DNA from: an uncultured Hyphomicrobiales bacterium
GTDB taxonomy: Bacteria; Bacteroidota; Ignavibacteria; Kapaibacteriales; UBA2268
Reading direction: 5' to 3'
DNA length: 64,000 nt
Assembly (NCBI GenBank): GCA_964606895.1
Contig: CAZSHX010000008.1
Location: 17,816-81,815, forward strand
A model generated the notes under the pieces. That model was not told the DNA's origin. It was given only the letters and a program-made list of their open reading frames with translations, and made no database searches. Below are positions 46,057 through 64,000 of the stretch, in pieces; within the stretch, counting starts at the first letter, position 1, and every line of letters begins with the position of its first letter. Position numbers and translations under genes: made by a program.

Positions 46057-47213
46057 AAATAGGTTTCGAAGCGGTATCAATTTTTGGAGTGAGTGGCATT
46101 GAGATGTACACTCGCTCTCTTATTCGTGCCCTGTCCGAACTTGAAAACGGACCCGATATCCACCTTTTTACGTCGTCCAGCCGTCAGAAAAGGGTGGCAG
46201 AATATTTCAGAGATACAAACAATATTAAAGTCAAAAAGCTTTTTCTGCATCCCCTTGCACTCGGAAAAATCGGTGCTCCGCTCATTAAGTTTATTAAAAA
46301 TGATATTCTGATGAAAAAAGCCTCTGCGGAAGTTGATTTATTTCATAATGTTAATCCCTGCTTTTATCATAAAAATATTAAAAACATGGCTGTAACGGTT
46401 CATGATTTGTTTGTTTTTTACGATGACGATTGGGCAAAAACTGCGTTTGAACCTGACCAGCAGGAATTTCAAGAAAATTTTCTTTCAGCATTCGAAAATG
46501 CTAAAGTGGTTTTCACTCCTACAAGATTTGTTGCCGATGAAATACTTACCAAATTCCCGTGGGTTGACAAGAAGAAGATTTATGTTACCTATGAAGCGGC
46601 AAATGAAAAATTCCGCAAAGCAGAGCCTGACTTCGATTTGCTTGCTCAAAACGGTATTAAGCCCGATATGAAATACTTCCTTTTCGTCAGCAGGATTGAC
46701 CCGCGGAAAAACTACGAAAGAATTCTTGAAGCTTACTCCAAACTTCCCGAAAAAATTAAACAAACGCACAAATTCGTATTTGTCGGCGGAGCGAAAGACC
46801 ACATCCAAAAGAAACTTTACGAATTGACAGCCAAACTTGGGATTGCAGATAATTTCATTCATTTGGACAACATTTCGAATGAAGTACTCGTTCAGGTTTA
46901 CAATCGTGCAACTGCATTGATTTTTGCAACTTTTGCCGAAGGATTCGGTTTGCCGATTGTCGAGGCAATGAATTGCGGATGTCCTGTGATAACCTCCAAT
47001 GTTTCATGTATGCCCGAAATTGCGGGTAATGCCGCTCTTCTCGTCAATCCCTACAGTACGGAAGAAATTGTTACAGCAATGCAAAAAACAGCTAAGGACG
47101 AAGACTTCAGAAATGACTTAATCCAAAAAGGCTTTCGCCGCGGACAAGAATTTTCGTGGCATAAAACCGCACTCGAAACTTACATGGGCTACATAGAGAT
47201 AGCAGAGGATTAA
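46053..47213 (+). CDS. Family 4 (GT-B) glycosyltransferase
   Basis: The ATG at 46053 overlaps the upstream stop as ATGA. The GT4 C-terminal signature is [21 protein letters not shown]. Confidence 0.85.
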
Positions 47214-47296
47214 GAGGGAGGAATTTTCATAAGCCCCTGCTCAAGTAACTCCTGAATGAAGAAAATTAACATTATCTTTTGCATTTTTTCAACCTC

Positions 47297-48538
47297 TTAC
47301 CTGTTAATGATAAATGGTTGAGAGAATTTGTAGCTACCTGAATTTATTTCAAGATGATATGAACCATTAACAAGATTAGAAATATTAATTGAATAATTAT
47401 GATTACCTTGAAATAAGAATTTGTTTTCAATTGCCTGAGTTAATTGACCGTTAATGTTGAAGATATTTATTGTCGTTATTCCTGATTTAGTTAGCTCAAA
47501 TGTTAAATTTAAAATATTTTTATCAGATGGATTTGGAAAAATATTATTTGCTTTAATTGGACTGTTCTCTTGAACACCGTCATTCTTTAGAAAATTCAAT
47601 AAGCAAAGATAATTTCCAATATTTCCAGCAATATATTTATTGTCATTAGAAGAGGACAAATAATGAAAGCCACCAGGGTAATTCTTAAGCATTTTATTAT
47701 TAATTAAATCCCAGACTATAATTTGCCCATAAGAGAAAATTAAATATTTATCGTCAGACGAAAAAACCATTTTCCCAACACCAGATTCGTAACCCGGAAT
47801 TGATGCTAATTTTTGCTTTGTTTTTACATCAATAATTTTTATTGCTTCCCCGGGATCGGGTGATGTAAAAGCGATTTTTGTTCCATCATTGGAGTATTTA
47901 AGTTTAGTATGCCAACCTATGGGACACTCATAATCAATCGTAAAATCCGAAAGATTAAGAAATCTTAACTTTTCTTGTCTTAGTGTATCACCATGAGCAA
48001 CTGAGAAAGCAAGATGAATACCATCTGGAGAAAATTCAAGTTGCCAAATAAGTGGTTGAATCCTTTTATCATCTTTTATAACTGAGTCAATTTCTTTGAT
48101 AATTTTTCCTGTTTGTAAGTCCCAAATTGTTAGACCAAGTATATTCGCTACGGCAAAATATTTTTCATCTGAGGACATAGCCACTTTAATACTAGAAAAT
48201 TCAGGATAATTATCCTTAGAAAGAATTATTGAGTCTGTCAAAAAATTATAAACACGGAAACCAGTGTTACTTGATTGCACAAGATATTTCCCTGTCTTTG
48301 AAAAAAACACGTTACCGCCACTGTAGCCTTGGTATTTTTTTATTTGGGTTGCTGTATTTACATCCCAAATACCGACGTAAGCTCCATTACCTCCAACAGC
48401 AAAGAATTGAGAACTAGGATGAAAGGAAATTCCTAATACATCTTGAGTTTGCCTCATCCAGACAGTATCCGGCTCAGTTGCCTCCAACTTCAAAAAAGTA
48501 TTAACAAAAACAACCAAAACCAGCAATTTGAATTTCAT
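47297..48538 (-). CDS. Beta-propeller (WD40-like) repeat protein with a T9SS C-terminal sorting domain
   Basis: The start is taken at MKFKLLVLVVF (signal peptide). The CTD is IFPNPSDKNILNLTF...TTINIFNINGQL...GSYHLEINSGSYKFSQPFIINR. Its N-terminus resembles that of 38177..39568 (EPDTVW / DTVWN, ...AVGGNG / VAGGN). Confidence 0.5.
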   Translation of the reverse strand: MKFKLLVLVVFVNTFLKLEATEPDTVWMRQTQDVLGISFHPSSQFFAVGGNGAYVGIWDVNTATQIKKYQGYSGGNVFFSKTGKYLVQSSNTGFRVYNFLTDSIILSKDNYPEFSSIKVAMSSDEKYFAVANILGLTIWDLQTGKIIKEIDSVIKDDKRIQPLIWQLEFSPDGIHLAFSVAHGDTLRQEKLRFLNLSDFTIDYECPIGWHTKLKYSNDGTKIAFTSPDPGEAIKIIDVKTKQKLASIPGYESGVGKMVFSSDDKYLIFSYGQIIVWDLINNKMLKNYPGGFHYLSSSNDNKYIAGNIGNYLCLLNFLKNDGVQENSPIKANNIFPNPSDKNILNLTFELTKSGITTINIFNINGQLTQAIENKFLFQGNHNYSINISNLVNGSYHLEINSGSYKFSQPFIINR

Positions 48539-48755
48539 AATCCGATTCCAATAAATATATTTAATGTTTTCATCGAAACTTTTGTAACTTACGAAAAATA
48601 ATTCAAACACAAACAAGAAAAAATAATTTCGAGGCATCAGTTTTCTTTCATACTACATCGTCTGAATCACGGATTAATAGGATTTTGGGATTAAACGAAT
48701 ATTTTAATTCTGATTTATTATTTGAAGAAACTCACAAAATGAAATGATGCAATTC

Positions 48756-50207
48756 TTAGTTTTTTCTCTTGCTGATTTGTTTTACAGCCATAACAAATAA
48801 GATTAGTATCATCGGCTCAATATCATATCTGAAACGGTTATTTTCTCCAAGTTCGAACAAATTGCCGATGATTGCAATGTATAGTATATTAAAGACCATG
48901 AAGGATATTAAATAGTAATATTGGGTTTTCATTTTTCTGTATTTCAGCAAATATCTGAAATAATAAAACGCAAGAAAAATCATCGCAAGGGTGAAAGTGA
49001 TTCCTATATATCTGAATACATCCAAGTTCATCCCATTTTCCTTGAATTCAGCTTTTTGTGTATCGCTTAAAGTGCTGTATTGCTTTTGCTGACCATAGAA
49101 CACGATATTATAGAAATCGGCATAATTTGAGATTTTGGAAAGATGGTCATTATAAATGTACCGATAATCTGTCGGCGATTTTAAAAAGAAATAGAATGAC
49201 ATTGCTACTGATTTCAAATAATTGGCAGGTTCGTAATAAATTGCCTTTAGCGATTCATTCATATAGAGCTTTGAAACTGGAACAAAATACTTGTGATTGT
49301 AATTAACATGCCTATTGAAATCTTTTAATGAATCTTCCAGACAGCTAATATTAGGGAAATTGGTCTTTTCTGCAAACTGCCTGTATGTTCCTGCGTGACT
49401 GAAAGGCTTTATTGACGACAATTCCGAGAGTTTCTTCTCCGAAATCAGTTTCTCCACTTGTTCTTTTGGTAAGGTAGAAATTGCAATTTTTGCCAGATTC
49501 ATTCCCGTCCAGCTTGTTGTAATGGTTCCAAAAAGGATAAGATTTTTGATAACTAAAATGAAAATAACAAAAGCAGGTATTGCGGCAGAAAATATAATTG
49601 TCTTTCTGTCATTCTTAAAAAAGAAAAGCATTAATAGAAAAATCATCAGAAACCATATAGGATGGTATAATGACCGAGTGAGAACAATTAATGCCAAAAC
49701 AGAAAATAGCAGAACTCCTGTTTTTAGATTTCTATGTTTTTCAAACCTGTCAAACAAGTAAACAGACAAAAGCATAAGAAACAAAACAGGATAGCTGTAG
49801 AAAAGCCAGTTCTCATAAAGTATCTGAGCAGGGCTGATTACAAACAAAGTGGAAATAATCAATGATAACACCCATCTTCCCGTAATTTTTTTTAGAATAA
49901 CATACAGCAGAAGAAAAATGAAAAAGCCTAAAATCAAATATAACAAGTTGAAGATTAGAGTTTCGTAACCAAAACCAATTTTCAGGATTAATCCTATGAA
50001 CAAATTGAATAAAGGAGGCTGGCTATGGAGATAAAAGATGCTTTCTGCAAGATGTTTTTTTAATAGAGATAAATCCTGAAGTTGAAAAAACCAAGTGATT
50101 GGTGTTGTATCAAAACGAATTTCTGAAAAATAGAATATCAGGCGTGAAGAAACGAAAATAATAAACAGATAAAAGTATTCTCTTCTATTTGCTTTTTCAA
50201 AGTTCAT
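48756..50207 (-). CDS. Polytopic membrane protein, GT-C (PMT_2/ArnT-like) glycosyltransferase candidate
   Basis: It has about 10 hydrophobic helices. An early loop motif, LHSQPPLFNLFIGLILK, resembles the HPPL-type motif of PMT_2-family enzymes. Confidence 0.45.
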   Translation of the reverse strand: MNFEKANRREYFYLFIIFVSSRLIFYFSEIRFDTTPITWFFQLQDLSLLKKHLAESIFYLHSQPPLFNLFIGLILKIGFGYETLIFNLLYLILGFFIFLLLYVILKKITGRWVLSLIISTLFVISPAQILYENWLFYSYPVLFLMLLSVYLFDRFEKHRNLKTGVLLFSVLALIVLTRSLYHPIWFLMIFLLMLFFFKNDRKTIIFSAAIPAFVIFILVIKNLILFGTITTSWTGMNLAKIAISTLPKEQVEKLISEKKLSELSSIKPFSHAGTYRQFAEKTNFPNISCLEDSLKDFNRHVNYNHKYFVPVSKLYMNESLKAIYYEPANYLKSVAMSFYFFLKSPTDYRYIYNDHLSKISNYADFYNIVFYGQQKQYSTLSDTQKAEFKENGMNLDVFRYIGITFTLAMIFLAFYYFRYLLKYRKMKTQYYYLISFMVFNILYIAIIGNLFELGENNRFRYDIEPMILILFVMAVKQISKRKN

Positions 50208-50646
50208 TAAAATCCTTCAAAACAGACTTAATTATTCCTTGGTAAGGCATCCAAGCAATTGCACAGTTAACTTTGGTTAAACTGTCGTCATCGAACGTAC
50301 ATTTAAAATTTTCTTTAGGGATTAAAGCCCGGCAGACCATTGGTCTTTCATCGTGTGGAAGTTTGCATCCTGTTTCGGTTAAAAGTATGCAATAGTAATG
50401 TTTGCTGTCGTCAAGGATTTTATCTGCACAGACTTGCCTCATTCTCAAATAAAAAAGGCGTGTGGCTTCTTCTCGTTTGTCCATTGGGGAATCGCCCCAC
50501 CAGGCAATTGCATAAAGATTTGTTTGAAGTAAAGTAGTTAAGCTTTCGAGGGTAACCGGAAACTTTAACTCACTTGGGAATATATGTCCGGGAGTTGCCT
50601 TACAACAAGCTCCCTTACAAACTGAACATATTTCTTGATTTTCCAC
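50197..50646 (-). CDS. YkgJ-type Cys-cluster protein (CxxCxxCC zinc/iron-chelating domain)
   Basis: The N-terminal CSVCKGACCK motif is present, plus downstream Cys residues. It overlaps the next gene by 11 nt. Confidence 0.6.
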   Translation of the reverse strand: MENQEICSVCKGACCKATPGHIFPSELKFPVTLESLTTLLQTNLYAIAWWGDSPMDKREEATRLFYLRMRQVCADKILDDSKHYYCILLTETGCKLPHDERPMVCRALIPKENFKCTFDDDSLTKVNCAIAWMPYQGIIKSVLKDFNEL

Positions 50647-51083: not shown

Positions 51084-52235
51084 TTAAAACATGTGACATT
51101 TTTCAAGATTCATTTCGCATTTCGAGTAAAACTGAGGAATCTGCAAACTACGTGCGGCAACCTCAATAACAAATGCTTTTAGTTCACGGTTGTCTTCTTC
51201 AAGTTTAAGGATTACGGGTTTTTGGCCGCAAGAAAAATTCTTGAATAAGGTTCTTGCCGGAACCTGCATATAAACACTCATTCTGCTGAAGCCGAAATCC
51301 AATGTTTCCAGCATCCATTTTGTAATCCAACCATTTACAAGCGGAGTTGGGTCGTCCTTTAGCATGTGGAATTTTTCGAATCTGACCTGGAATGCAGAAA
51401 CTAAACCTTCAATTCTTATTTTCGGACGATTTTCGATTCTTTCTTTTATTCTTCGGATAAATTGGTCTGCATTTGAGTTGAGAACATCTTTCAATCTCAT
51501 ATCATAATTTTGTTTCAGGTAACTATTCAAAGTTTGGTCTTTCAAACCTTCATAAGCCTTCAAAGAATCGTTTATAAGCTTATGATTAATGGGGAATCTA
51601 TCCAAACAGCAAGTGATTTCTTTGTCCCTGAAAGCTCTATGGTAATAAATACGAATAGTAGATTCAGGATATATTTTGCCAACGGCTTCGTCAATGTGCT
51701 TCGAACCGTTTGTCATGAAAGTCTGGCAAGCGATATTTCTAGTGTTCATTCGAGTGAGCAATTCATCCCAAACTCTGATTTCATCTTTGGGTCCAATCTG
51801 ATAACCCAGGACAACCGTCGAGAGTGCGTCAATTGCCATGGCAAGAAACATCGTATTCGAAGTTGAGCCGGAACCTTTGCATGAACATGAAAAATTTCGA
51901 CCAACCAGATATACCAGCTTAGGTTCGTGCTTTGCAATATTAATATCCAGATATTCTTCCCAATTTGGGCACCCATCAAGAAATTCTCTGATTTTCTGAT
52001 TAATTCTTAGTGGCGAACTATGGTAGAAACCAACTAAGTCTCTGCAAGTTTTACCATTCAGATATTCCTCGACAATATATGACAAGTCAGGTTTGGAGGA
52101 TTCCATTTTTTCATGAACCCATGTTTTCCCACAGGTTCTACAGCGATAACGCTTATTGCCTGTCGTAGTCTTACCATGGCGGATAACTTTAGTACTCTTA
52201 CAAAATATACAAGCCTGTCGAATTTCATCATTCAT
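51084..52235 (-). CDS. IS1-like transposase-related protein (InsA-type zinc ribbon + degenerate InsB-like core), probably immobile
   Basis: The N-terminal ribbon is CIFCKSTKVIRHGKTTTGNKRYRCRTCGKTW. The central segment FMTNGSKHIDEAV aligns by eye with IS1 InsB WMTDGWPLYE but has D->N. No terminal inverted repeats are seen, and the gene sits 13 nt from the OsmC gene. Confidence 0.4.
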   Translation of the reverse strand: MNDEIRQACIFCKSTKVIRHGKTTTGNKRYRCRTCGKTWVHEKMESSKPDLSYIVEEYLNGKTCRDLVGFYHSSPLRINQKIREFLDGCPNWEEYLDINIAKHEPKLVYLVGRNFSCSCKGSGSTSNTMFLAMAIDALSTVVLGYQIGPKDEIRVWDELLTRMNTRNIACQTFMTNGSKHIDEAVGKIYPESTIRIYYHRAFRDKEITCCLDRFPINHKLINDSLKAYEGLKDQTLNSYLKQNYDMRLKDVLNSNADQFIRRIKERIENRPKIRIEGLVSAFQVRFEKFHMLKDDPTPLVNGWITKWMLETLDFGFSRMSVYMQVPARTLFKNFSCGQKPVILKLEEDNRELKAFVIEVAARSLQIPQFYSKCEMNLEKCHMF

Positions 52236-52487
52236 TAGATAATCCTAAAAATAAATATAGAATAAGCAAAAAACAAAATATGTACAAAATAAATATATTA
52301 AAAATTAATTAAAAAAAAACATATTTTTTTCAAAATCGTAAAATATTTTTTTGAATGTTGTTCTCGAAGGATTTTTACATTTTGGCAAACTATATATTTA
52401 ATGGCGACTTATAAATAATAATTGTAATAAGTCAATTAAAATGATTAATTTGCAGGAGTAATGATTGAATTTTTTTAGAAATGATTG

Positions 52488-52559
52488 TGACCCCAACGGG
52501 ATTCGAACCCGTACTGCCACCGTGAAAGGGTGGTGACCTATCCATTAGTCGATGGGGCC
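52488..52559 (-). tRNA. tRNA-Glu (anticodon UUC), no encoded CCA
   Basis: The minus strand reads GGCCCCATCGACTAATGGATAGGTCACCACCCTTTCACGGTGGCAGTACGGGTTCGAATCCCGTTGGGGTCA. It folds by hand into a 7-bp acceptor stem, 4-bp D stem, 5-bp anticodon stem with loop CTTTCAC, 4-nt variable loop, and T arm ACGGG/TTCGAAT/CCCGT. Confidence 0.9.
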
Positions 52560-58046: not shown

Positions 58047-58739
58047 GATAATAACCTTTTAGTTTTACATTTGATTCAACATACAAATCTAATAACTTAT
58101 ATTCAATATATTACAAAAAAAATCATACTTGCATAGTTGTCGGACAGCGGACAAAAATCAGTCTTTGCAACTTACTAATTAACAACCACTTACAAGCGAG
58201 CTAAATTCTGTCCTGTCCGACTGTTTAACACAATGATATTTAACCAACCTAATTAACTAATTATTCATCAGAAAGGAGAACCTTTATGGACGAGCAAATT
58301 GTCCTGAAAGACAAAGCAATTCAGATACTGCCTGAATCTATTATTGAGCAGTTCAGAGCAGAAGAGCAAGACCGACGAAACGAGCAAACTTCAAAGGATA
58401 TATAGTTCGGCAACGACCTGGCAAGCAAGGGCAAACTTGGGATTATATCACAGGCTTGACGCTATGCGATGGCTTGACAGTATTATCCAAGAAGGATTAG
58501 TCAAACATGTCAATCAGACTATATTGACTATCCGCAAATCTTTCGCATCTCCATCCAAATTTATAGGGTGGAGGTGTTGGAGAGGGGGAAAATCGTATAA
58601 AACAAAAAATGCCAGCAAATCTGCCAGCATTTAGTTTGTGACTGTCCTAAGTGCCTTTATTGTAAGGTTAATAGGCTTTAGTAAAGTGGGCCCTGAGGGA
58701 CTATTGGATTCCTATATATTTCAATGCCTTATGTTACTA

Positions 58740-58985
58740 CTATTTTATTTTTGCCAAATTATTAGCCAAATTAGTGTTTTTTCTATGCTTTTTATCCAAA
58801 ACAATCAAGCTGAGAAAAGCAAAATGTTTTCCTAAACTATAAACAATAAAAAATACACCACTATCATAATGGTCGTTATTCAAAGATAATTGCTCGTTAT
58901 TTAGAGCTTGACCTTCAAATACGTCAATAACCGCTTTGATTGCGTCTAATTGGTACTCTTGATTAGGGCCGAAATTAAGTTTCAT
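58740..58985 (-). pseudogene. 5' stub of a type III restriction Res (helicase-nuclease) gene; only about the first 30-45 codons look native
   Basis: The N-terminus MKLNFGPNQEYQLDAIKAVIDVFEGQ matches the conserved start I know from type III Res subunits (MKLxFxxxxxYQxxAIxxVVDxFxGQ). The remainder is low-complexity, and the ORF ends after 81 aa versus about 900-1000 aa expected. No further minus-strand ORF lies downstream. The start overlaps the upstream stop as ATGA. Confidence 0.5.
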
Positions 58986-60214
58986 TGGATAACACTTCTT
59001 AAATTTTGTGGTATAGAAGGTACACCTACTCTACCCATATAAGATAAATATCTTTGCCTAAGTTGTTGAATATAAGGGCTATTTATTTTTAATACTCTCT
59101 TTTTCTTATTAGTGTCTAAAAAGTGACCACCTTTTAGTTTTAATGAAAACCTGAAATCAATTAATGCTGTTTGCCTATCAGATTCACTAAATGCAAATAT
59201 AGGTAGTAAATGTAGAGCAGATATTTCTTGATTATACGCCCGAATTATTTCTTCATTTGTTTTACAAAAATCATTGATAGTTTTAAAACTCTTTTTAGTA
59301 AAGCAGAGTAATTCAACCTTTTCATTCCTTTTAATAAGTTTAGACAAATCACATTCAGGAGAAATTACAATTCCAAAATTCTCTTTACTGAGTTGATAAA
59401 TATCTCCAGTCATAATTGAATCAGTTTCTTGGGGCTTAGAATAATAGAGTTTAGAATATAAATTGAGAATTTCATTTGTTTCAGTTATGCTTTTAAAATT
59501 TGCTACCGAGTAATCACTAATTGACTTTTTTAGTGATGTCTCTTGTATCAGTCTTTCGGAAATTAGATTCTGAAATAATGTAATAACTTCAATTGTAGGA
59601 TCAAGTTCAATAACAGTCGGTTCACCTGTTGTTTTATTGAATTTTCTTACAGAGCTATAAAAAAGTTCTTTAATCCAATATTTATCAGCCTGTTCTAATT
59701 CTGAGAATATTGATTGTGAAGCTTGGTTAATTGTCTGACTCCAAATGAAAGGTACATTCAAATGCTTATTTTTATCTTCAAAGGAATTAATACCATCAAT
59801 AATTTTCTTATATTCTTTATCTGATTCGTTCATGTTCCCTTTAATTTCAAAAAATATTTTATCATTATACAAAGACTGTAATTCCTCCTTTATTTCTTGA
59901 GCAATCTCATTCATTGAATACAAATAGACAAGGGAAAATATTTTCTGAGATTTTAAAAACTGAAACGGATTTTCATCAGGTATGTCTATGAAATTTTCAT
60001 CATCGTCATGTTCTTCAACTTTCCGTTCAAAATTCCAATCAAGAATCAAAGCTTTTATAGTTGACATTGAAGCGACTGCTTTTTCAAGGGTACTTAGATT
60101 GTTTATTGGTAAAATAGAAAAATTAACATCAGAATTAAATTTCTGAAAAAGTTTATTTTCTTCTCTATCAGTATCAAAAATATGATCATCGGCAAATAGT
60201 ATTATTCCTTCCAT
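58982..60214 (-). CDS. Receiver (REC)-like domain protein with an uncharacterised ~270-aa C-terminal domain
   Basis: The start is taken at ATG 60214, with AGGAG 7 nt upstream and 1 nt after the upstream TAA; the ORF-track start at 60277 would overlap by 62 nt. The REC-like pattern is GIILFADD (D9,D10), ALILDW (D59), LVYLYS (S100) and FFEIKG (K125). The C-terminal domain (e.g. GDIYQLSKENFGIVISPECDLSK, INSPYIQQLRQRYLSYMGRVGVP) is not recognised. Confidence 0.55.
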   Translation of the reverse strand: MEGIILFADDHIFDTDREENKLFQKFNSDVNFSILPINNLSTLEKAVASMSTIKALILDWNFERKVEEHDDDENFIDIPDENPFQFLKSQKIFSLVYLYSMNEIAQEIKEELQSLYNDKIFFEIKGNMNESDKEYKKIIDGINSFEDKNKHLNVPFIWSQTINQASQSIFSELEQADKYWIKELFYSSVRKFNKTTGEPTVIELDPTIEVITLFQNLISERLIQETSLKKSISDYSVANFKSITETNEILNLYSKLYYSKPQETDSIMTGDIYQLSKENFGIVISPECDLSKLIKRNEKVELLCFTKKSFKTINDFCKTNEEIIRAYNQEISALHLLPIFAFSESDRQTALIDFRFSLKLKGGHFLDTNKKKRVLKINSPYIQQLRQRYLSYMGRVGVPSIPQNLRSVIQ

Positions 60215-60215
60215 T

Positions 60216-62447
60216 TTATTGCTCCTGATTAAATTTAACAATGAAATTAGCACCAGGGAGTAGTCCTTCTTGTCCATTCTGAACTACCGAAATTTCTCCA
60301 TTAATTCGGAGAAGTATTTCTTTAACGATGTAAAGTCCTAAGCCTCGACCATCTAATTTTAAAGAAAAGAACTCATTATAAATCATCGGAATTACATCTT
60401 CACGGATGCCGGGTCCGTTGTCTGCAATAATTATTGAGCTACTTTTACTATTAAGTTTAAATATAATTTCTTTATCTTTGGATTGATTTTTGTTTACCCA
60501 ATAAACAGCATTATCCAGTAGGTTTATCAAAATTTGCAGGATAAGACCGGTATTGGTTTTAATAATAACATCCTCATCTTTTAATATTTTTACAGTAATT
60601 TTTCCATCTATATCACGCCTGAAATATTTGATAACTTTTTCAATACTTTCATAAACACTTACATCCTTTATTGCTTTACGTTGGTTTTTAAATAGCGGTT
60701 GAATTACTTGCATTTCGTCATATACAAAATTTAGATTTTCATCTAATTCACTCAGCAGTGAAATTAAATCTGTATTAGTAAAATCATGATTCTTTGCTTT
60801 AACTCTAAAGTCTTTTACATTATTTCTCATTTTTGAAAGAAGGGTGAGAGCATCATGCGAAGCTTTTTCTACAGCCATTCCAAGACCAGCTAAATCTTCA
60901 ACTATTTCCATCCTGTCTTTCATCATTATGTTATGTTTTTTTACAGTGTTAAGGAACTTGTTTGCTTTTTCAAGTACTTCCCTGTTGTCTATCTTCTCAA
61001 GACTTGATTTTAAGGAGTTGAATGATTTCTCAACAATATCGACAGAATCACTAAATGATTTCTCTTTTAAAATATTAGCTTTATTTTCGTCAATCTTCTT
61101 TTCTGTATTTAATACTTGCGTAACCAAAGTAACAAGTTTCTTGAAATCCTCATATGCTCCATCAATATTCATCATCCCTTGACGATTGGTTGAGTCTTTC
61201 AATAATGGATTTTCATTTTGCCCCTGTCCAATATAAACAAAACCAGTTAAATCATTATAACTAATATAATCTCCAGCACGTACTCTTGCCCTTAATTTAT
61301 CTAATTCAAGCCAATCATAACCAGGTTCCCCGAAAGGATAAACTCTCACACCATCTCGAAATAAATATACAAAGTTTTGCTTAATAAATTGTTCAATCTC
61401 TTTTGTTAATATGGTTTTATCCCTATTTTTCAAATTAAAAGCATAAAATGAGAATTTAAAATATCCACAAATTGGCTTTCGGTTAAATTCAGTAAACCAA
61501 TCTTTGGTTGTCTGTGATGGATATTGATATTTACTTAGAGATTCTATGCTTAGCAAATCAATTTCTCTGTTTTTAATTTCTCTATAAGGTGCAGTAGATT
61601 TATAAGTGAATTTCAAAATTCCTTCTGCAGTGACTTCACCAATCATCGTAAATTGAGCTCTTTCGATTACATCACTGAAAGTGATAATGTCTTCAGGAGC
61701 ATATTCTTTTTTATTAACAAACATTTTTACAATGAAATCTTGCTTAAAATCTATTTCAAGTGTCTTTGCATTTTCATCTTTTGGAGGTATTAATCGTTGA
61801 ATAGATTTAAACAACTCCTTGAAATCATTAGAATTCCAATTCTCCCTCATGTTGTATATCCTGATCAACGTTCCTTTTTCTTTTTTGATTTCTTCGGGTG
61901 GATTATTTACAAACCAGCTATTGCTAACATCTTCAAGTAACTTGTATTCTTCTGGTGGTTGATTGAACAAATCAGCCTTCTCTGGATTGTATTCAGTATA
62001 ATCCATTTCGAGTCTAATTTCGTTGTTGTTGATTGCTTTTGTATAAAGTCCTATTTTCTCACCCAGCTTATGAATAGCAAATCTACCAATTCCTTTTTCA
62101 CCCTGAATAATTCTACCTTTTACTGTAATATTCTTCTTTTGTTTTCTTTTATCTAATTTTACTGGTGTTGCAGGTCTAAGCCAAACATTAGTGATAGTTT
62201 CTAATGTCATACCATCACCATCATCTTCAACTTCGATAAACGGCTGTTCTTTCTCAGTTAAATAATTCTTTCCATAATTATCCATATTACAAAATCGTAC
62301 TTGTACATTTTCTGCATCAGCATCATAACAATTTTTTAAAATTTCTATAATTGCTACTTTTTTATCAGTAATCAACTGATCACCAATAATATTTATCAAC
62401 CGTGCATAAGGCTTAAATGGTTGACTATTTTGATTAATTATTGCCAT
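60216..62447 (-). CDS. Dual GHKL protein: N-terminal MORC/Hsp90-type ATPase (HATPase_c_3-like) fused to a C-terminal histidine-kinase DHp + CA module
   Basis: The N-terminal Bergerat-fold motifs are EILKNCYDADA (N-box), EDDGDGMT (G1) and GEKGIGRFAIHKLG (G2). The C-terminal part has an H-box-like LGMAVEKASHDALTLL (His531, codon 60857-60855), N-box LINLLDNAVYW, G1 ADNGPGI and G2 DGRGLGLYIV. No TM segments. Confidence 0.7.
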   Translation of the reverse strand: MAIINQNSQPFKPYARLINIIGDQLITDKKVAIIEILKNCYDADAENVQVRFCNMDNYGKNYLTEKEQPFIEVEDDGDGMTLETITNVWLRPATPVKLDKRKQKKNITVKGRIIQGEKGIGRFAIHKLGEKIGLYTKAINNNEIRLEMDYTEYNPEKADLFNQPPEEYKLLEDVSNSWFVNNPPEEIKKEKGTLIRIYNMRENWNSNDFKELFKSIQRLIPPKDENAKTLEIDFKQDFIVKMFVNKKEYAPEDIITFSDVIERAQFTMIGEVTAEGILKFTYKSTAPYREIKNREIDLLSIESLSKYQYPSQTTKDWFTEFNRKPICGYFKFSFYAFNLKNRDKTILTKEIEQFIKQNFVYLFRDGVRVYPFGEPGYDWLELDKLRARVRAGDYISYNDLTGFVYIGQGQNENPLLKDSTNRQGMMNIDGAYEDFKKLVTLVTQVLNTEKKIDENKANILKEKSFSDSVDIVEKSFNSLKSSLEKIDNREVLEKANKFLNTVKKHNIMMKDRMEIVEDLAGLGMAVEKASHDALTLLSKMRNNVKDFRVKAKNHDFTNTDLISLLSELDENLNFVYDEMQVIQPLFKNQRKAIKDVSVYESIEKVIKYFRRDIDGKITVKILKDEDVIIKTNTGLILQILINLLDNAVYWVNKNQSKDKEIIFKLNSKSSSIIIADNGPGIREDVIPMIYNEFFSLKLDGRGLGLYIVKEILLRINGEISVVQNGQEGLLPGANFIVKFNQEQ

Positions 62448-63708
62448 GTTTCACCTTCTTTGCTATTAAAATGTATTCTTCAGGATAAACAAGTTTACTA
62501 TCTTTATTATCTAATTTGGAGAATTTTCCTGTTTTTTTGTCTCTAATAGTCGGTATTAACTTATTCGGGATACTTCTTTTTATAATTTCTATCATTTCAA
62601 ATCCAATAGATGTTAACATTTCGGTAAAAACTTCAGCAGATTTTATTTTAACGTTATTGAAAGTTGTATTACCAATTACTAAACAAATGTGACCATCGTT
62701 CTTTAAAATTCTTTTCATTTCCTTCGCAACAGATTGCATATCATTAAAGTAATTAGCTACTTCTTTAGCTTTTCGTTTATCTTTTTCAGCAAGATTATTT
62801 ACTATTTCTTGTGCTATTCCTGAAAAACAACTTAGTTCTTGATTTAAAGAATAAAAAGTTCCAATAAAGTTTTTTCTAAATTTAGTTAGGTCAGTAATAT
62901 ACTCGTACCAATATGCGGTTAGTTGATGAATATCCGCATATTCATAAGATGTAACATAAGGAGGAGATGTAATAATTGCACTTACGGAATTTGCTCTTAT
63001 TGATGTTTTTCGAGCATCCTCCAATCTGATTTCACATTTTGTTTTAAAGAATTTCTGTGTTACCAGTTGGTTATAAAATTCTGAGTTCTTTTTTATCATC
63101 TGTTTTGAATGTGCAGGAAAAGCTAAAAAAGGATCTGTTGGCACTTTCTTAGGATCAATCTGTGGTTTTGTACTTGATTGCAACCACTTTGAGCAATTTT
63201 TCAATATATGAGACAATGAAACAAGGAAAAATTCCTTAATAGTTTCATCATTTATATCCAAAATTTTATCATAAAGGAAAGCAATTTTAGATTTGTATTC
63301 TTGAGAAAACCAGTAGTCCAATCGGTCGTGAACTGATAAATTAGAATATTTATCTATGTCAAATAATGCGAAGTTATTGACAATCAAGTTAAATTGCTGT
63401 TCTAATTCTTTCGGCTCAATAGGGTTAGTTTTAGCTTTAGTAATAAGCTTTGCAACTGGATTGATATCTACACCAATAGATTTTCTACCATGCACTTTTG
63501 CTTCTACAAGCGTAGTTCCACAACCTGCGAACAAATCGGCAATCAAATCATTCTTTTGAGTATATTCTTCAATTAGCTTTTTTACTAAGTTTGGTAGAAA
63601 TTTAGCTGGGTATCTATGATAACCGTGTGTCCATTGCTCAACAGAACGGACGTTAGTGAAACACCATTCAGGACTTACTTCGATATTTTCAAAATCTCTG
63701 TAAAACAT
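62434..63708 (-). CDS. N6-adenine/N4-cytosine DNA methyltransferase (motif order X-I ... IV)
   Basis: HGYHRYPAKFLP plus DLFAGCGTTLVEAKVHGRKSIGVDINP (AdoMet motif I) lie at the N-terminus. The catalytic motif IV, IITSPPYVTSYEY, is about 180 aa later. An SPPY variant is commonest in N4-cytosine enzymes but not diagnostic. Confidence 0.85.
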   Translation of the reverse strand: MFYRDFENIEVSPEWCFTNVRSVEQWTHGYHRYPAKFLPNLVKKLIEEYTQKNDLIADLFAGCGTTLVEAKVHGRKSIGVDINPVAKLITKAKTNPIEPKELEQQFNLIVNNFALFDIDKYSNLSVHDRLDYWFSQEYKSKIAFLYDKILDINDETIKEFFLVSLSHILKNCSKWLQSSTKPQIDPKKVPTDPFLAFPAHSKQMIKKNSEFYNQLVTQKFFKTKCEIRLEDARKTSIRANSVSAIITSPPYVTSYEYADIHQLTAYWYEYITDLTKFRKNFIGTFYSLNQELSCFSGIAQEIVNNLAEKDKRKAKEVANYFNDMQSVAKEMKRILKNDGHICLVIGNTTFNNVKIKSAEVFTEMLTSIGFEMIEIIKRSIPNKLIPTIRDKKTGKFSKLDNKDSKLVYPEEYILIAKKVKHGNN

Positions 63709-63710
63709 TT

Positions 63711-63941
63711 TTATCCCGTTCTAAAATCCACACCAGCATCCTTGGATTGCTGGATTATGTTTGTTTTTAAATTTCGATAATCATCAAATAACCATAATAT
63801 TAACTTCATATAATTTCGATTAAATAAATTCTCACTGCGACTAGCTCTTAAACCAAGATATTCCAACGTTTCTTTTGATAATTCCCTTGGAAAAAGTTCC
63901 TTCAACTTCTCAATAGTTTTCTCTTTAATAAAAAAAGACAT
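63711..63941 (-). CDS. Small protein of unknown function, first gene of the methyltransferase operon
   Basis: This 76-aa ORF ends 2 nt before the methyltransferase ATG. No motif is recognised, so coding status rests only on position and length. Confidence 0.35.
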   Translation of the reverse strand: MSFFIKEKTIEKLKELFPRELSKETLEYLGLRASRSENLFNRNYMKLILWLFDDYRNLKTNIIQQSKDAGVDFRTG

Positions 63942-64000
63942 ATCATCCTTAATTCACAAACAAATCTATAAAAATAAAAAAAATCAAAATTCAAAAATAC

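Follow-up and report, generated by a model that had tools for sequence, protein, structure and literature searches.

What kind of system is encoded by five closely packed open reading frames (ORFs) on the minus strand near the end of a 64,000-nucleotide stretch of bacterial DNA (contig CAZSHX010000008.1, positions 17,816–81,815; hereafter the window), and which of the five belong to it? A preliminary description, made from the sequence alone, had taken all five together as a candidate phosphorelay-based defence operon that matched no named system. In the direction of transcription, they encode a 76-aa protein, a DNA methyltransferase, a fusion of a MORC-like GHKL ATPase with a histidine kinase (GHKL-HK), a receiver protein with an additional output region (REC-X), and a stub resembling a Type III restriction enzyme (Res). 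We found that the middle three form a cassette in which the kinase core and the receiver are intact, the genes are strictly coupled, a MORC-type ATPase takes the sensor position of the kinase and a methylase is always present, and whose kinase is homologous to one that is required for phage defence. With modest confidence, we lean towards reading the cluster as a horizontally acquired two-component module associated with restriction-modification (R-M), in which the kinase would be cued through its GHKL part, phosphate would pass from H531 of the kinase to D59 of REC-X, and the output region of REC-X would be activated as an effector or target-recognition part.

The ORF list of the window gives five consecutive minus-strand ORFs spanning 58740–63941 that are tightly coupled. 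The 76-aa ORF (63711–63941) and the methyltransferase gene (62434–63708) are 2 nt apart (TAA-AA-ATG), the methyltransferase and kinase genes share a 14-nt overlap (ATGGCAATAATTAA), and the TAA of the kinase gene (60216–62447) is followed after 1 nt by the ATG of REC-X at 60214, with AGGAG 7 nt upstream. The REC-X gene (58982–60214) and the Res stub (58740–58985) overlap as ATGA at 58982–58985. These junctions, and the packing as a whole, match the preliminary description exactly in coordinates and sequence. For REC-X, a mechanically called ORF of 431 aa begins at 60277; this start was discarded because the homologues share the start at 60214 (410 aa), all beginning MEG[IV]ILFADD.

A word-indexed search returned 232 homologues of REC-X, all without a name. 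We fetched the loci of 25 species representatives (Flavobacterium, Chryseobacterium, Elizabethkingia, Aquirufa, Saprospiraceae, Prevotella/Bacteroidales, Ignavibacteria and Kapabacteria), 22 of which had enough flanking DNA for gene order to be counted. The order methyltransferase, GHKL-HK, REC-X was present in 22/22, across Bacteroidota, Ignavibacteria and Kapabacteria. As the distance from the kinase stop to the REC-X start is 1–9 nt in every one of these loci (exactly 1 nt in 13, as in the window), the tight packing is not due to chance. Upstream of the kinase, each locus with flanking DNA carries an orthologue of the methyltransferase (36–80% identity). The surroundings of the triad vary. 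A small XRE-type helix-turn-helix (HTH) gene lies directly upstream in 13 loci, and in five (L009 5274–7739, L010, L011 5326–7776, L017 and L022) the methylase and GHKL-HK genes are separated by a second paraMORC-like GHKL gene, whose product of 816–821 aa has HATPase_c_3 only and lacks a kinase core. At least 10 loci have no dedicated nuclease directly after REC-X, and most lack a res gene. Because the surroundings change while the order of the triad holds, the conserved core consists of three genes, frequently joined by the XRE gene as a fourth, and does not include a dedicated nuclease. The proposal of a five-gene operon as the unit was accordingly given up: conservation is limited to three genes, the Res stub being a remnant and the 76-aa ORF unique to its contig. 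As a separate observation, in one Kapabacteria locus (L007/L008, 4762–6409) the genes immediately before the triad encode a HipA_2 kinase-like protein and a DUF3037 protein.

The family extends well beyond these loci. A REC-X profile searched against 1.84 billion representatives gave 529 clusters at 50% identity, with scores that drop sharply between a close clade (>200 bits) and a large group of ~400-aa proteins aligned over their full length at ~20% identity. These distant relatives are also found in triads with an N6_N4 methyltransferase and a kinase, either standalone, as in L035, where ybaB and recR flank the triad, or within R-M operons, as in L038 (1–11251), where it comes after a Type I hsdM-hsdS pair and is followed by a SLFN_AlbA_2/HATPase_c_4 gene and a gene for an 866-aa protein. 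We found no REC-X on plasmids.

GHKL-HK (743 aa) was described beforehand as a soluble protein joining a GHKL ATPase to the DHp and catalytic (CA) domains of a histidine kinase, and searches of Pfam, NCBIfam and the PDB, together with alignment of orthologues, bear this out. The MORC/paraMORC-type ATPase module, the presumed sensor, covers aa 30–218 (61794–62360): aa 30–169 match HATPase_c_3 (8.2e-17, Pfam), and the full module matches the NCBIfam BbrUII/HgiDII restriction-enzyme family (1.5e-15). At the other end, the CA domain (aa 636–739, 60231–60542) matches HATPase_c (1.8e-17, Pfam), and both GHKL domains exceed the Pfam cut-offs. For the DHp region, HEF_HK matches aa 522–585 weakly (Pfam), and the histidine kinase ZraS from the PDB aligns to aa 508–728 (8.5e-10). 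There is no transmembrane segment (maximum Kyte-Doolittle hydropathy 1.37). Conservation was read from an alignment of 14 divergent orthologues, down to 43% identity. In the N-terminal GHKL domain, E35, N39, D42-A-D44, D75xG77xG79 and G116xKG119xG121 are invariant, and motifs I–III of the Bergerat fold can be recognised in its sequence. The predicted phospho-accepting histidine, H531 (codon at 60855–60857; LAGLGMAVEKASHD), is likewise invariant and is always followed by Asp or Glu (D532 in the window), and so are the kinase N, G1, F and G2 boxes (N642, D645-N646, D676xG678xG680, F693, G700xG702xG704). The middle domain (aa ~220–500) matches no Pfam family and is strongly conserved (R364-D-G-V-R-V-Y-P, D378-W-L, S396-Y-N-D-L, N421-R-Q-G).

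REC-X (410 aa) gave no family match in Pfam, PADLOC, NCBIfam or PDB sequences, and its architecture was read from AlphaFold2 models and conservation as a receiver, a helical middle region and a C-terminal beta-barrel. The receiver occupies aa 1–128 (59831–60214), with the D59 codon at 60038–60040. In the family alignment, D9, D59, S100 and K125 of the receiver quintet are invariant and D10 is >90% conserved. The AlphaFold2 model (predicted local distance difference test, pLDDT, 86.5) matches REC domains in Foldseek with probability 1.0 and template modelling (TM) scores of 0.66–0.70, which confirms the canonical receiver fold at the level of the predicted structure. Both residues initially singled out, H531 and D59, are thus invariant. 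With H531, the ATP-binding boxes and the receiver quintet all intact, and with a distantly related system, Ambrosia, that needs its receiver aspartate for phage defence, the proposed phosphorelay logic is supported.

The output region is harder to place. In its model (aa 128–410, pLDDT 85.6), a helical part that includes a beta-hairpin leads into a beta-barrel, which has a helix at its C-terminus (barrel ~aa 265–410, 58985–59422). The best Foldseek matches in the PDB were MazF-mt1, MazF-mt9 and apo MazF, with probability 0.82–0.92 and TM scores on the target of 0.57–0.63 at weak E-values of 0.1–0.3; nothing convincing came from a library of viral structures. In 42 sequences that cover the superfamily, D9, D59, K125, G270, D271, C288 and R395 are invariant and P286, D289, P380 and G397 nearly so, giving the output region the signature [TP]GD[IV][FY]K...N[IV]RPxCD...P[YF]I..QQ[RK][YF]...R.G.P. 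Two catalytic assignments were tried and rejected. A PD-(D/E)xK reading of "GD...ECD" was ruled out as position 287 varies across the superfamily and Foldseek recovered no nuclease structures, and a papain-like Cys-His-Asp triad (C288/H335) was ruled out as H335 is not kept beyond the close clade. Operons whose other three genes are 98% identical have exchanged the output half of REC-X, a pattern expected if this half is the variable working end in a conflict system. Separately, a triad beside an integrase in L039 (3531–5285) encodes a REC-X-like protein (P0384) with a C-terminal GIY-YIG_2 nuclease domain (E = 3.8e-16). As this contig comes from low-coverage long-read data, an indel error or an assembly artefact may have joined two neighbouring genes into P0384; fused or not, a GIY-YIG nuclease directly follows the REC-X relative there.

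The first gene of the triad encodes a 424-aa DNA methyltransferase. Its assignment to the N6/N4 class stood, with matches to Pfam N6_N4_Mtase (8.9e-29) and, over the full length, to PADLOC MTase_II (7e-61). Motif I (FAGCG, ~aa 60) stands ~185 residues before motif IV (SPPY, ~aa 247). The 76-aa ORF, 2 nt upstream, fills the slot in which 13 related loci have the XRE-type gene, and its GC content (0.294) is like that of the cassette. It has no match in Pfam, PADLOC, NCBIfam or PHROG, and tblastn saw it in the window's own contig only. We considered it as an XRE homologue and rejected this, as it has no similarity to the XRE genes of the related loci.

The cluster had also been judged to be low in G+C and horizontally acquired, and this view is supported. 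Its GC content is 0.299, compared to 0.371 ± 0.014 (minimum 0.337) in all other 5.2-kb windows of this DNA. As GC is back to 0.36–0.37 on both flanks (58047–58739, and 1.45 kb past the window end, read in contig L001), the low-GC island is exactly the five ORFs.

How does the cassette relate to systems already described? The soluble kinase and receiver families HEF_HK (PF19191) and Response_reg_2 (PF19192) were defined in a computational study (Bellieny-Rabelo, Pretorius and Moleleki, 2021, PMC8011034), in which soluble HATPase_c_3 + DHp + HATPase_c kinases were linked (91.6%) to receiver-like proteins with no other known domain. These pairs have methylases upstream and are enriched for R-M genes nearby; for the C-terminal 280 aa of the receiver-like protein, the study gives neither fold nor role (PMC8011034). 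The window has in common with them the kinase architecture, including a DHp histidine followed by Asp/Glu, an adjacent gene for a ~400-aa receiver-like protein with DD/D/S-T/K residues and no other known domain, the upstream methylase and the R-M context. While the published set is mostly from Proteobacteria with C5 methylases and Vsr, the window's clade is of Bacteroidota/Ignavibacteria type with an N6/N4 methylase. The Pfam models themselves largely miss this clade: PF19191 scores the window kinase at 15.4 bits (E = 0.026), below its cut-off of 24.1, and is carried by 0/120 of the closest kinase homologues, and PF19192 does not match the window's REC-X and matches 1/45 family members, at E = 0.035. 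As the REC-X profile reaches a PF19192-positive protein (P0306, 29.2 bits to PF19192) at E = 7e-20 over residues 5–390, and distant members sit in similar triads, profile comparison places the window's clade as a divergent sister branch of the published family. The locus of P0306 reads C5 methyltransferase, Vsr, HEF_HK kinase, response regulator.

The second relative is Ambrosia, an anti-phage system validated in Pseudomonas (September 2025 preprint, bioRxiv 10.1101/2025.09.30.679545). It consists of AbrR (XRE), AbrA (N6 methylase), AbrB (histidine kinase/HSP90-like ATPase), AbrC (receiver) and AbrD (HNH), and all five genes are needed; AbrB N40A and AbrC D60A each abolish defence, and the cluster is induced upon infection (10.1101/2025.09.30.679545). 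Its hosts are Gammaproteobacteria, 76% of them Pseudomonadales (10.1101/2025.09.30.679545). Shared with the window is the logic of a methylase, an HSP90-like/histidine-kinase ATPase and a receiver protein. Homology between the window kinase and AbrB extends over the GHKL and middle domains, at 27% identity in 435 alignment columns (E = 6e-36; AbrB was compared by its first 399 aa), and N40 of AbrB corresponds to N39 of the window kinase, as D60 of AbrC does to D59 of REC-X. An XRE gene stands in the position of AbrR in 13 of the related loci, while the window has none. AbrC is a short protein of 209 aa, a canonical Response_reg domain with a helical tail and no barrel, whereas the 410-aa REC-X has an extra output region of 280 aa. 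No HNH or HTH family was found in the five window products, which leaves the essential HNH protein AbrD without a counterpart; where the short receiver needs a separate HNH protein, systems with the long REC-X often have no nuclease. By these comparisons, the window shares a kinase family and an overall logic with Ambrosia, yet is not an Ambrosia system. The preliminary description's statement that the combination is not a named system could not be upheld, as the pair of kinase-like and response-regulator-like genes beside R-M genes had been published in 2021 and the AbrB-based Ambrosia validated in 2025: the cassette is neither unnamed nor categorically new, and is a divergent branch of a described gene-cassette family.

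Two further comparisons are looser. Detocs, a phage-defence phosphorelay in which a kinase (DtcA) signals to a buffer receiver (DtcB) and a receiver-effector (DtcC), has only a concept in common with the cassette, in which a kinase passes phosphate to a receiver that is fused to an effector domain. The Detocs effector is a nucleosidase-type domain; to our knowledge, the system includes neither a methylase nor a MORC-like ATPase. Its buffer receiver has no equivalent in the window, and none of the PADLOC Detocs models matches a window product at E<=1. In paraMORC GHKL ATPases of R-M loci (Iyer, Abhiman and Aravind, 2008, PMC2292703) and in GHKL-gated nucleases such as VcSduA Shedu (PMC12137116), the GHKL domain is fused to or paired directly with a nuclease; in the window, by contrast, it is fused to a complete histidine-kinase core, whose signal would go to a receiver on a separate protein.

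The defence role, the cue and the action of the output domain that we infer for the cassette are as follows. The working unit would be the three translationally coupled genes. The methyltransferase would modify DNA, and could either mark self DNA, as the preliminary description proposed, or take part in an attack that is induced, which is what the authors of the Ambrosia preprint suggest for their system. In the kinase, the MORC-like GHKL ATPase and the middle domain take the place of the usual sensor domain, and this module may bind DNA or detect a DNA-linked or infection-linked cue. The cue would lead to autophosphorylation of GHKL-HK on H531, and the phosphate would then pass from H531 to D59 of REC-X. 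Phosphorylation of D59 would turn on the output region, that is, the helical domain and the MazF-like barrel with D271, C288, D289 and R395, which may serve as an effector or target-recognition part, probably on nucleic acid, or recruit a nuclease where one is present. A bolder form of this proposal, which we regard as conceivable but doubtful, would make REC-X a new class of phosphorylation-gated effector: the barrel with its invariant Asp/Cys/Asp/Arg would be a nuclease, toxin or target-recognition module switched on by a MORC-like DNA-sensing kinase, the three genes would be self-contained and need no classical restriction nuclease, and the output cassette would be shuffled under arms-race selection.

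Several observations weigh against the proposed R-M-associated signalling module. The preliminary description had asked whether the kinase–receiver pair is conserved and sits in defence islands or beside R-M genes; the pair was present in 22/22 loci, with links to methylases and R-M genes, but the copy in the window is a solitary island outside any defence island, and PADLOC recognises only the methyltransferase and the Res stub among its products. In the modelled structure, the barrel of REC-X resembles MazF at the fold level only. Neither Pfam nor a profile search of PDB sequences detected a PemK/MazF signal in REC-X, and homology to MazF by sequence is not supported; because the conserved set (D271, C288, D289, R395) also differs from the MazF catalytic pattern, we take the likeness as no more than a fold resemblance. 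The link to Ambrosia has gaps as well. No relation between REC-X and AbrC was detected (hhalign probability 0.1), and AbrA is of the N6_Mtase/MmeI type (NPPF), while the window methyltransferase is an N6_N4_Mtase with SPPY and has no similarity to it. As the receiver proteins are not detectably related and the methyltransferase classes differ, carrying the Ambrosia phenotype over to the window cassette is an extrapolation. In Ambrosia itself, methylation by AbrA gives phage no protection, and the authors prefer transcriptional control by the receiver protein over a direct effector role (10.1101/2025.09.30.679545).

If REC-X were a transcription factor only, the window copy would represent a decayed system that has lost its nuclease, an explanation we consider unlikely. 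Such decay fits poorly with the at least 10 loci, and the distant standalone triads such as that in L035, which have no nearby nuclease and keep all catalytic residues, or with the triad ORFs being intact in three other metagenome contigs that carry them. Nor does the output region look like that of a DNA-reading regulator: Foldseek of this region returned no HTH or winged HTH proteins, and the invariant D271, C288, D289 and R395 in the barrel are more suggestive of an active or binding site than of a helix that reads DNA.

A different division of labour seems to us quite improbable, namely that GHKL-HK itself does the restricting, as an HgiDII/BbrUII-like GHKL enzyme that attacks DNA lacking methylation, with REC-X as a modulatory subunit and the cassette as in essence a Type II-like R-M system dependent on ATP. 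The NCBIfam match at aa 30–218 (1.5e-15) is what suggests it, along with the DefenseFinder label of AbrB as a Type II restriction enzyme, the many loci that consist of a methylase and a GHKL protein with no other nuclease, and the conserved middle domain, which could hold a catalytic site. However, that match covers the ATPase domain only and reaches 56.8 bits against a family cut-off of 550, Pfam and PADLOC found no nuclease family anywhere in the protein, and the strict conservation of a full kinase core and a receiver partner would be left unexplained. Least probable in our view, and by some way improbable, is a role outside defence, with the two-component circuit controlling an orphan methyltransferase for epigenetic regulation or the genes acting as a selfish addiction module. 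Housekeeping neighbours in the window, and the position of the L035 triad between ybaB and recR, would agree with it; the repeated occurrence of the triad in or beside R-M genes, integrases, transposases and toxin-antitoxin genes, the low-GC island, the mosaic exchange of the output domain and the validation of the kinase family in phage defence (Ambrosia) all argue otherwise.

Two-component signalling in R-M-like defence has scarcely been studied, with one computational paper and one preprint that gives a phenotype for a distant, differently built relative. The clade described here is widespread (529 superfamily clusters, with the triad found from Bacteroidota to Kapabacteria) and has been missed by PF19191 and PF19192 and, for the kinase and REC-X, by PADLOC. 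Many genomes carry the triad alone, without a nuclease, which makes it a clean system for studying sensing by a MORC-like ATPase and the function of the REC-X output. If the output domain is indeed an effector, it would represent a new enzyme class in phage defence and the cassette a bacterial model for MORC-type sensing; if REC-X is only a regulator, it would be a further case of Ambrosia-like inducible restriction.

The remaining member of the cluster is the 81-aa Res stub. It had been likened to the N-terminus of Type III Res enzymes, and this proved correct for about its first 38 codons: PADLOC REase_III matches aa 1–38 only (5e-6), and 30 aa are 63% identical to the start of the 881-aa ResIII + RE_endonuc protein that follows REC-X in L031. 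Past this Res-like start, the stub matches nothing. In two Bacteroidales/Prevotella loci (L031 4659–13860; L032 47–445), the gene immediately before the triad encodes a Type III Mod (617 aa, DPPY). In L031, the gene for the 881-aa Res comes immediately after the triad, which is thus nested between mod and res. No Mod homologue is present in the window, and the Type III-like start of the 81-aa ORF leads into neither a helicase nor an endonuclease domain. On the most economical reading, the stub is what is left of the 5′ end of a Type III-like res gene, a dead fragment that travelled with the cassette or stayed behind next to it, and no working part. A group II intron at the truncation point was considered and ruled out, as an Rfam search of 56–64 kb found no RNA elements. 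Abutting the remnant on the plus strand (58286–58634) are a 39-codon ORF with a good ribosome-binding site and then a 96-aa ORF in another frame; this looks like a disrupted gene, without a match in Pfam or PHROG.

Some possible expression signals border the cluster. About 20 nt upstream of the 76-aa ORF there is a possible Bacteroidota-type −7 promoter box (TAgaTTTG, minus strand, 63961–63968), to which we give low weight; TAnnTTTG is the known consensus of Bacteroides promoters. A sigma-70 promoter scan gave sites no more frequent than in shuffled sequence. Approximately 110 nt downstream of the stub, a terminator-like hairpin (minus strand, 58607–58632) has an 11-bp stem followed by a T-run, TTTGTTTTAT. 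At the borders of the cassette, we found no convincing direct or inverted repeats of the kind that flank mobile elements, and no tRNA gene.

The neighbours in the window are ordinary chromosomal genes, including topA and genes for a YfhO-like protein, a GT4 glycosyltransferase, a WD40 protein sorted by the type IX secretion system (T9SS) and a FISUMP/TIG protein. The T9SS sorting domain and FISUMP are features of the FCB group. Just past the window end, upstream of the 76-aa ORF, contig L001 (16–1350) encodes a 444-aa Lys/Glu-rich, apparently coiled-coil protein with a hydrophobic C-terminal part; at a GC content of 0.361, this gene is outside the low-GC island. We dropped its identification as a phage tape-measure protein as it had no match in PHROG or, by tblastn, in phage genomes. 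A second stretch of lower GC (0.31–0.33) lies at 47000–50500 and encodes the T9SS-sorted WD40 beta-propeller protein (47297–48637) and a 483-aa protein without a family (48756–50207). Further along, a gene for a 383-aa protein with an InsA-like zinc ribbon (51084–52235) adjoins the only tRNA gene of the window, tRNA-Glu (52487–52559), and may be the relic of a mobile element.

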